31,184 nt of DNA, from positions 123,342 to 154,525 of the forward strand of contig JAVZCB010000003.1 of the NCBI GenBank assembly GCA_038874595.1. Reading direction: 5' to 3'. The translations under genes were made by a program, and so were the position numbers. The notes under the pieces were generated by a model. The model had not been told where the DNA came from, ran no database searches, and was given only the letters and a program-made list of their open reading frames with translations. The DNA comes from Candidatus Micrarchaeia archaeon. Its GTDB lineage: Archaea; Micrarchaeota; Micrarchaeia; CAILAH01. This document shows, in pieces, positions 6,646-6,879 of the stretch; positions within the stretch are counted from its first letter, which is position 1; every line of letters starts with the position of its first letter.

Positions 6646-6879
6646 CCAACAACCTAACACTTATCTTTGAACCGCTTGCTTGTATTCAGCAAGCACTCTC
6701 CCTCACTCCACCAACAACCCTAATACTTATCCTTGAACATAACATACAGTTTTGGGGCTTAAACATCGCTCGGTCTCAAAACCCTAATACTTATCCTTAA
6801 ACCCGATACGCATTCAGACCAAGACCAAATACAGCATTCCCCGCCCAACAACCCTAATACTTATCCTTGAACCCGATAC
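6646..6879 (-). repeat. CRISPR-like mini-array: 4 x ~28-bp repeat with 3 unique ~35-38-bp spacers; gene-proximal repeat contains the thrC stop codon
   Basis: Plus-strand consensus CCAACAACCCTAATACTTATCCTTGAAC at 6646-6672, 6711-6738, ~6777-6802 and 6845-6872 (periods 66, 64, 70). Confidence 0.85.

Follow-up and report, generated by a model that had tools for sequence, protein, structure and literature searches.

An array of repeats and spacer-sized inserts at the 3' end of an archaeal thrC gene: a probable record of off-target spacer integration

How does a gene come to end in something that looks like a small CRISPR (short palindromic repeats, clustered and regularly interspaced) array? The question is posed by positions 6646-6879 of a stretch of 31,184 nucleotides (nt), here called the window, from a Candidatus Micrarchaeia archaeon (assembly GCA_038874595.1, contig JAVZCB010000003.1). 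Four direct copies of a 27-28 nt unit follow one another there, separated by inserts, and the last of them spans the stop codon of thrC, the gene for threonine synthase. We think it likely that the array arose by three off-target spacer integrations, carried out by the organism's own type I-B Cas1-Cas2, and Cas4 probably took part in them.

Anatomy of the thrC array

The unit reads CCAACAACCCTAATACTTATCCTTGAAC on the + strand and GTTCAAGGATAAGTATTAGGGTTGTTGG on the thrC strand, where it comprises the last five thrC codons (FKDKY), the TAG stop codon and the 10 nt that lie downstream of it. From the gene-distal end toward the gene, the parts are these:

6646-6672, - strand: copy A, 27 nt, with two mismatches and one deletion relative to copy D; distal and oldest-looking
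6673-6710: insert s1, 38 nt, with a 7 bp inverted repeat (GCTTGCT...AGCAAGC)
6711-6738, - strand: copy B, identical to copy D at 28/28 positions
6739-6774: insert s2, 36 nt
6775-6809, - strand: copy C, a 28 nt unit (6775-6802, 24/28 versus D) with a 7 nt extension
6810-6844: insert s3, 35 nt if the third duplication is taken as 35 nt; when the 28 nt register is kept instead, 42 nt (6803-6844)
6845-6872, - strand: copy D, the gene-attached 28 nt unit, with the stop codon inside it (CTA at 6854-6856, TAG on the gene strand)
6873-6879, - strand: 7 nt of thrC coding sequence, GTATCGG on the gene strand, duplicated also in front of copy C

Counted between their AAC ends, the copies lie 66, 64 and 70 nt apart. 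The 28-mer of the unit occurs exactly twice in the window and in none of 100 shuffles of it, and the three genome matches of its 23-nt core all lie inside this locus. When the inserts are compared with each other and with thrC sequence, in ten pairwise local alignments against shuffles, nothing remains significant after correction. Two short resemblances can be noted before correction: s2, if extended by the 4 nt with which copy C starts, has the 9-mer TCGGTCTCA in common with thrC coding positions 6907-6915 (p=0.0075), and s3 matches thrC 6896-6907 at 10/12 positions (p=0.048). Copies C and D can also be laid over each other in a shifted register of 30 nt (6780-6809 versus 6850-6879, 29/30 identical) that reaches 7 nt into thrC. 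The five gene-distal nucleotides of copy C differ from those of the other copies at three positions.

Much of this had been set out in an earlier note on the window. Its four copies, with periods of 70, 64 and 66 nt counted from the gene and with unrelated inserts between them, are confirmed by coordinates, shuffles and local alignments; the extra GTATCGG that it saw upstream, common to copies C and D, appears in the shifted register; and the possibility that the inserts are decayed tandem copies of each other, which it named as a possible refutation, finds no backing among the ten alignments. Its view of the array as polarized fared less evenly, and is taken up below.

Sister loci, insert donors and the resident CRISPR-Cas system

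The genome to which the window belongs (0.92 Mb in seven contigs, 93.5% complete, 44% G+C) holds a second array of this kind 1.2 kb from the first, at the 3' end of ProRS, the prolyl-tRNA synthetase gene, whose stop codon (TGA, 5431-5433) lies inside copy 1.

5422..5583, - strand: ProRS 3'-end mini-array, three copies of 28-30 nt at periods of 66 and 66 nt, unit GTTACACTC...
5518..5555: insert 2 of the ProRS array, a 38/38 copy of positions 195732-195769 of contig C2

For this insert, the donor can be named. C2:195732-195769 lies inside the Metallophos domain of an open reading frame (ORF) of 241 aa, a metallophosphoesterase, and its flanks are unrelated to those of the ProRS insert. We take the C2 site to be the original because it sits inside a Pfam domain; in relatives, a nucleotide match to the donor gene was found only outside the protospacer. 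In an independent sample the 38 nt form a unitig at double depth, with the donor flanks as loose ends. A second donor accounts for an insert on contig C1. The insert, C1:28573-28606, equals C2:191897-191930 at 31/34 positions, and the match stops exactly at the border between insert and duplication. The duplicated copies at this C1 locus have diverged, too (33/36), and the donor sits in a 536 aa ORF without a family match. At both donors the flanks are unrelated to those of the insert and the junctions are without usable microhomology; at the C1 locus GCT is present twice, not shared. When the genome is compared with itself, ten spacer-sized dispersed matches flanked by a local direct repeat come to light, eight of which are tRNA-intron hairpin modules; the remaining two are the inserts just described. 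Spacer-sized DNA from a distant place, set between two copies of a target of ~30 nt, is the signature of full-site spacer integration. We know of no transposase that makes duplications of that length.

The two known donors lie no more than 4 kb apart on C2 (chance ~0.008, by a simple calculation), and this stretch may be an acquisition hot spot. GC skew along C2 was inspected for a replication landmark at the donor region; it follows gene orientation only and is uninformative. On the side where a protospacer-adjacent motif is expected the flanks of the two donors differ (GCA or CAT versus GTG); on the other side they have GTGTT in common.

Such loci are not confined to these few. A genome-wide scan for short direct repeats, less the whole-unit tandem repeats and the CRISPR array, returns 18 seed pairs at spacings of 60-74 nt. 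Most other spacings give 0-5 in a bin of 5 nt, and a single bin close to 125, double the period, reaches nine. With two loci in the peak set aside as tRNA-intron hairpin modules, ungapped extension yields about 12 loci. The duplicated sequence, 19-39 nt long, is a different one at every locus, and the insert, of 32-47 nt, is unrelated. Ten loci have a period of 64-71 nt and two one of 75-76; of ten that were checked, seven have an ORF (of at least 90 aa) whose stop codon falls inside the duplication or no more than 6 nt away. Put through the same scan, a Cas1-negative relative, G017 (0.76 Mb, complete), gives two pairs at spacings of 60-74, both 13-mers, and a Cas1-positive one, G013 (0.89 of 1.07 Mb, CRISPR array excluded), gives seven, all 13-15-mers, none of which becomes a convincing duplication-plus-insert event on extension. 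Neither control relative has the peak, which accordingly belongs to this genome and does not characterize the class.

The period of the mini-arrays is also that of the genome's true CRISPR array, which is accompanied, on another contig, by cas genes of type I-B:

C6:76862-77817: CRISPR array with a period of 66-71 nt, in which 14 identical repeats of 31 nt alternate with 13 spacers of 35-40 nt (36 nt in eight cases)
C1:217858-225051: type I-B cas operon, with cas6, a cas8-sized ORF without a family match, cas7, cas5b, cas3 and a cas4 truncated where the contig ends

On the opposite strand the repeat reads GTTAGAATCGAGCCTATTGTAGGATTGAAAC; it starts GTTAGA and has ATTGAAAC as its 3' end. Its spacers find no match in the organism's own genome. 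The array runs off the end of contig C6, and the leader side points that way, too, to judge from the orientation of the ATTGAAAC end and from the order in G013, where cas1 is followed by an array with a near-identical repeat. The third spacer of the C6 array appears a second time at the contig's extreme end, as an assembly loop or as a true duplication.

The geometry of the two kinds of array agrees. The thrC duplications measure 28, 28 and 35 nt and the inserts 38, 36 and 35 nt, versus repeats of 31 nt and spacers of 35-40 nt; all three thrC inserts thus have sizes within the spacer range of the true array. There are hints of agreement at the borders as well. On the repeat's strand, units start GTTCAA (thrC), GTTACA (ProRS), GTTAGA (C1:28537) and GTTCTG (C5:80650), one copy at C3:5388 starts GTTGGG, and the CRISPR repeat starts GTTAGA. 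By objective borders 3 of the 12 loci have the GTT start, and by eye four to five; we put the probability of this by chance at ~0.01 to 0.001, by our own calculation with a trinucleotide frequency of ~0.035 per locus. In the thrC unit 8 nt separate TAGG from the border, which matches the true repeat (GTAGG + 8). As a general ruler this distance was tried and rejected: by eye it fits one of the five GTT-type units, that of thrC, and not those of ProRS, C1, C3:5388 or C5.

How the array may have been built

The sequence of events that we favor can be pictured as follows. A stretch of 28 nt at the thrC end (GTTCAAGG...GTTGG on the thrC strand) would offer the integrase a start like that of the CRISPR repeat (GTTAGA...). 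Staggered cuts at both ends of the 28 nt would be joined to a fragment of 35-38 nt, and repair of the gaps would leave the 28 nt duplicated. Two events on the 28 nt unit, the repeat event falling on the gene-side copy, would have brought in s1 (38 nt) and s2 (36 nt). In a third, the leader-side cut would have been made 7 nt deeper in thrC, at another GT further upstream, to give a duplication of 35 nt and an insert of 35 nt, and with them the period of 70. Throughout, thrC would act as the leader, on the gene strand, and the distal unit would be the oldest. The gene stays intact because each duplication holds its last five codons and its stop codon, and since the duplication carries the stop codon, hits of this kind can survive in a densely packed genome. 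We infer that Cas1-Cas2 was the agent, that the events occurred in this order, and that by now the array belongs, as a neutral element, to the 3' untranslated region of thrC.

The earlier note had likened the array to a polarized one, with the copy farthest from the gene as the most degenerate, and the claim stands in part. The degeneracy of copy A does not clearly exceed that of copy C, which in the 28 nt register has four mismatches, A having two plus one deletion. What supports polarity is a relative of the same genus, G001, in which a counterpart of the distal insert s1 is likely present directly after a decayed copy (TGCTTGTATTCA versus TGCTTGTATACA, 11/12, p=0.028 uncorrected, six tests). 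The gene-side thrC inserts of G001 and of this genome are unrelated, and the gene-proximal units are private to this genome, in agreement with gene-side growth in each of the two lineages. Neither a CRISPR repeat nor cas1 was found in the G001 assembly (81% complete). A second relative of the genus, G002, does carry the CRISPR repeat, with two mismatches. Its ProRS stop codon is followed after 14 nt by a tRNA gene, with no array—an empty ProRS site. At thrC the spacer that leads to tsaC measures 66 nt in G002 versus 222 nt here, and the flank is too diverged to make a clean empty site of it. Among four thrC loci taken from the family's other genera, none has a clear copy of the gene's end behind it, and an identical fixed region in distant relatives, which the earlier note gave as grounds for refutation, was not seen there. 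Behind one thrC gene of another genus (locus L005, genome G003), ~115 nt are tandemly duplicated; their sequence is unrelated to that of the thrC array.

Within the population, as far as contigs show, the array does not vary. The public runs that contain DNA of the window are hot-spring metagenomes, and no RNA run is among them; contigs of four of them were inspected, and three, from samples of two studies, cover the array. It is identical in all three, the nearby differences (6469, 6520, 6522) lying outside it, and the ProRS array differs among samples at one base (5563). The new units next to the gene that the earlier note suggested looking for across strains were not found, nor was any other variation in unit number, in the contigs of the three samples, contigs being apt to drop rare variants. 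A scan of metagenomes with a 19-mer of the unit gave two chance hits, in unrelated AT-rich contigs, and no variants. The thrC array is fixed in the sampled strains.

Several observations weigh against off-target integration. Neither cas1 (PF01867) nor cas2 (PF09827) is found in the 93.5%-complete assembly. In type I-B loci cas1-cas2 usually come after cas4; given that order, and a cas4 truncated at the contig end, the two genes presumably lie in the gap between the end of C1 and the end of C6. The thrC inserts have no donor in the organism's own genome, the best matches being of 14-16 nt and not significant, and the search against mobile elements that the earlier note advised found nothing among viral contigs: one exact 24-mer per thrC insert gave no hits, exact matching being a search that misses diverged protospacers. 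Copies of protospacers are thus found in two sister-array inserts and in none of the three thrC inserts, and the integrase is extended to thrC by analogy with the sister arrays.

The copies themselves raise difficulties, too. The gene-side extension of 7 nt is present in D along with the distal end of 5 nt, and C deviates at three of those five distal positions, so that a history of staggered cuts requires either clustered later changes in C or a coincidence of 1 in 1000. B and D are identical, though B should be older than C. The short stretches of s2 and s3 that recur in thrC coding sequence count against integration, too. Nor do the targets as a set resemble the CRISPR repeat: the 12 score a mean of 13.75 of 31, versus 13.2 at random genomic sites (p=0.10), and the thrC unit, at 11/31, is the lowest of them and at random level. 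Across loci the length of the duplication (19-39 nt) is anticorrelated with that of the insert (32-47 nt), the sum being 64-71, which independent rulers for repeat and spacer would not predict; the inserts of 41-47 nt are longer than every spacer of the true array. The enzyme may set the total of duplication and insert (64-71 nt), instead of each part, although we know of no published ruler model that predicts a fixed sum. G013, Cas1-positive and with a near-identical repeat, has no such scars, and a CRISPR system alone is therefore insufficient to produce them. Finally, G001 has four copies of the thrC end at spacings of ~45, 39 and 21, without the CRISPR period. We read these as decayed by deletion; they are equally a warning that another process may be copying the gene end.

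A rival explanation is template switching during replication or break repair, in which a strand leaves the end of thrC, copies elsewhere and returns ~30 nt behind its point of departure. The earlier note preferred an origin of this sort to Cas1 integration, in view of the variable repeat boundaries, and several facts speak for it: the borders of the duplication do differ from event to event and from locus to locus (19-39 nt), duplication plus insert is a steadier quantity than either part, the two templated inserts come from the organism's own chromosome and both from one 4 kb stretch of C2, and the assembly lacks cas1 and cas2 and the targets overall are unlike the CRISPR repeat. Variable boundaries are, however, no argument against Cas1. 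Pyrococcus furiosus Cas1-Cas2 integrates in vitro at non-CRISPR sites, with G1, T2, T3 and A6 preferred, and full-site integration there uses pairs of sites that lie ~30 bp from each other and share only 43% identity with the repeat (PMC6698737). In the type I-B system of Haloarcula hispanica (PMC4872114), the duplication has a fixed leader-side start and an end at a set distance from a mid-repeat motif; mid-repeat motifs govern its length, and duplications become aberrant when the motifs are moved. At a site without the motifs, loose borders are accordingly to be expected. Template switching also leaves the sizes unexplained—inserts cluster at the organism's own spacer size, and the peak of periods is that of the CRISPR array—and the donor junctions offer no usable microhomology (GCT twice at the C1 locus, not shared). 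Several units start GTT, as the CRISPR repeat does, and two relatives of the same class lack the peak although they, too, replicate and repair their DNA. With the sister-locus period equal to the CRISPR period, two templated inserts without microhomology and a type I-B operon in the genome, the preference of the earlier note is reversed, and we regard template switching as unlikely.

Decay of an ordinary tandem duplication seems to us less probable still. Here a unit of ~66 nt from the thrC end would have been repeated, 28 nt of it being kept alike as the rest drifted, by gene conversion from the copy in the gene or by a function, for instance as a terminator or a protein site. The 9-mer TCGGTCTCA of s2 and the start of copy C matches thrC at about the distance that a unit of 66-70 nt predicts, s3 has its 10/12 match nearby, copy C carries 7 extra coding bases, and the window does contain real tandem repeats whose period is close to this one, for instance four units of 65 nt at 25200-25455 that start on the stop codon of another gene. 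But copy B equals D at 28/28 positions next to an insert at random-level identity, a contrast that neutral decay cannot explain, and identity over whole units is 0.43-0.57. The short matches fail correction for ten comparisons and the second is not collinear; inserts at the younger sister loci match neither flank, and two of them come from another contig.

A further reading has the thrC promoter reading through a working neo-CRISPR array, Cas6 cutting the transcript and the inserts serving as guides. Its setting is the convergent gene pair in which the array lies; the earlier note had placed it between tsaC and thrC, seeded on the thrC 3' end, and gene calls agree:

6854..7954, - strand: thrC, threonine synthase, 366 aa (TIGR00260, 183.6 bits, cut-off 167.1)
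5963..6631, + strand: tsaC-type gene (TIGR00057, 124.6 bits, cut-off 123.2), the array ending 15 nt past its stop codon
6618..6645, - strand: first T-rich stretch met on the gene strand 3' of thrC, overlapping the tsaC stop and lying past the entire array

Archaeal transcription ends at oligo-T tracts, and judging by the position of the first such stretch, thrC transcripts would run through the whole array. When the unit is read GTT-first, thrC is on the 'leader' side; that reading follows the sense strand of thrC, and the array has no T-tract ahead of it. The 3' part of the unit, TATTAGGGTTG, resembles by eye the TTGTAGGATTG of the repeat, cas6, cas7, cas5 and cas3 are present, and the array is unchanged in three samples. 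Against guide function stand a CRISPR RNA handle (last 8 nt) of GTTGTTGG, not ATTGAAAC, an identity to the repeat of 11/31, copies that differ at 0-4 positions and by one indel, and, in the sister array, an exact match to self that would be autoimmune if used. We hold it to be very unlikely that the thrC array works in this way. The broader proposition, that gene ends give birth to CRISPR arrays, with read-through from thrC, ProRS and others and at least some units cut by Cas6 into guides, strikes us as improbable, about as much so as tandem decay; were it true, the 3' untranslated region of a gene would double as a CRISPR locus, and one guide would be directed against the organism's own metallophosphoesterase gene.

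Least probable of all, in our estimation, are stacked attachment-site remnants, left when elements that integrated at the thrC 3' end were later deleted, one site copy remaining from each. Archaeal integrases and casposons do integrate in the 3' ends of genes and restore the end, and 7 of 10 loci touch a stop codon. Yet the copies stand 35-42 nt apart at every locus with no remnant of an element, some 12 different genes would each need an element of their own, and two of the inserts are copies of chromosomal genes; no full element lies between two thrC-end copies at any of the seven thrC loci compared.

Other repeats occur in the window. At 25200-25470, four near-identical tandem units of 65 nt start on the stop codon (TAA, 25210-25212) of the ORF at 24472..25212; after them comes a fifth copy, a degenerate one, of the part at the gene end. 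A repeat-insert unit of mini-array origin may have been amplified whole here at a later time. At 9049-9146, GTTTTTTGTTTTATA and ~20 further similar bases occur twice, 76 nt apart and 48 nt 3' of a phosphoglucose/phosphomannose isomerase gene (8048..9001), and a weaker third copy may exist near 9187. A perfect tandem duplication of 2 x 125 nt covers the 3' end of a LigT-like phosphoesterase ORF (9442..9963) at 9844-10094. At 5626-5904, on the - strand, is a tRNA gene with a long, repeat-built intron; ARAGORN, which intron-bearing tRNAs escape, reports nothing in the window, and an Rfam search at gathering thresholds finds no family there. A contig of run X2 skips 5673-5808 and has six other letters in their place, and so a sister strain has a shorter form of this intron. 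In-frame coding repeats are present as units of 21/63 nt in two adjacent ORFs (2357-2558, 2768-2941) and as units of 99 nt, the length of an ankyrin repeat, in the last ORF (30498-31152).

Relation to known systems

Good demonstrations of off-target spacer integration exist from in vitro work and from engineered Escherichia coli; natural, fixed examples are scarce. A literature search turned up experimental work, reviews and one comparative preprint, and no natural archaeal case. About a dozen scars in less than 1 Mb, two of them with donors, would show where a type I-B integrase lands when it misses, and how loose its ruler can be. They would show, too, which hits a compact genome tolerates: duplications that carry the stop codon. 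This bears on the origin of new CRISPR arrays, and on what adaptation genes cost a reduced genome of the symbiont type. For annotation there is a warning in it: CRISPR-like mini-arrays with locus-specific repeats need not represent a new system.

The nearest precedent is in E. coli, where Nivala, Shipman and Church reportedly described, in 2018 (Nat Microbiol 3:310), off-target spacer integration by type I-E Cas1-Cas2 that gives rise to neo-CRISPR loci. There, as here, non-CRISPR DNA of repeat length is duplicated around a spacer-sized insert, repeated hits can build a small array, and inserts can come from self. Unlike those loci, the ones described here are natural, archaeal and of type I-B, number about 12 in 0.92 Mb, lie mostly on gene 3' ends and have duplications of loose length. 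The E. coli work used over-expressed proteins, and the natural cases given are circumstantial and from two other species, as described in a preprint (bioRxiv 10.1101/148544).

Two archaeal systems come closer in other respects. The P. furiosus integrase has a related type of repeat, GTT...ATTGAAAG/C, and its preferred G1, T2, T3 and A6 can be set beside the unit starts GTTCAA at thrC, GTTACA at ProRS and GTTAGA at C1; the report on it (Grainy et al. 2019, PMC6698737) describes plasmid targets in vitro and a tight spacing of 30-31 bp, whereas here there are what we read as fixed chromosomal scars with duplications of 19-39 nt. H. hispanica has a type I-B system like this one, and altered motif spacing leads to aberrant duplication sizes there, of 29-33 bp (Wang et al. 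2016, PMC4872114), a narrower range than here.

Closer to home, the organism's own C6 array has a period of 66-71 nt, versus 64-70 for that of thrC, the same range of insert sizes and apparently the same growth at one end. The thrC array differs from it in a unit that is 11/31 identical to the repeat and lacks the ATTGAAAC handle, in having no leader and imperfect copies, and in lying on another contig than the cas genes. The ordinary tandem repeats and repeat-built tRNA introns of the same window have similar periods in similarly non-coding DNA, but their whole units are 96-100% alike, whereas those of the thrC array are alike in 28 of ~66 nt. Unless we misjudge these comparisons, the thrC array is most likely of a kind already known from experiment, instead of a new kind of system.

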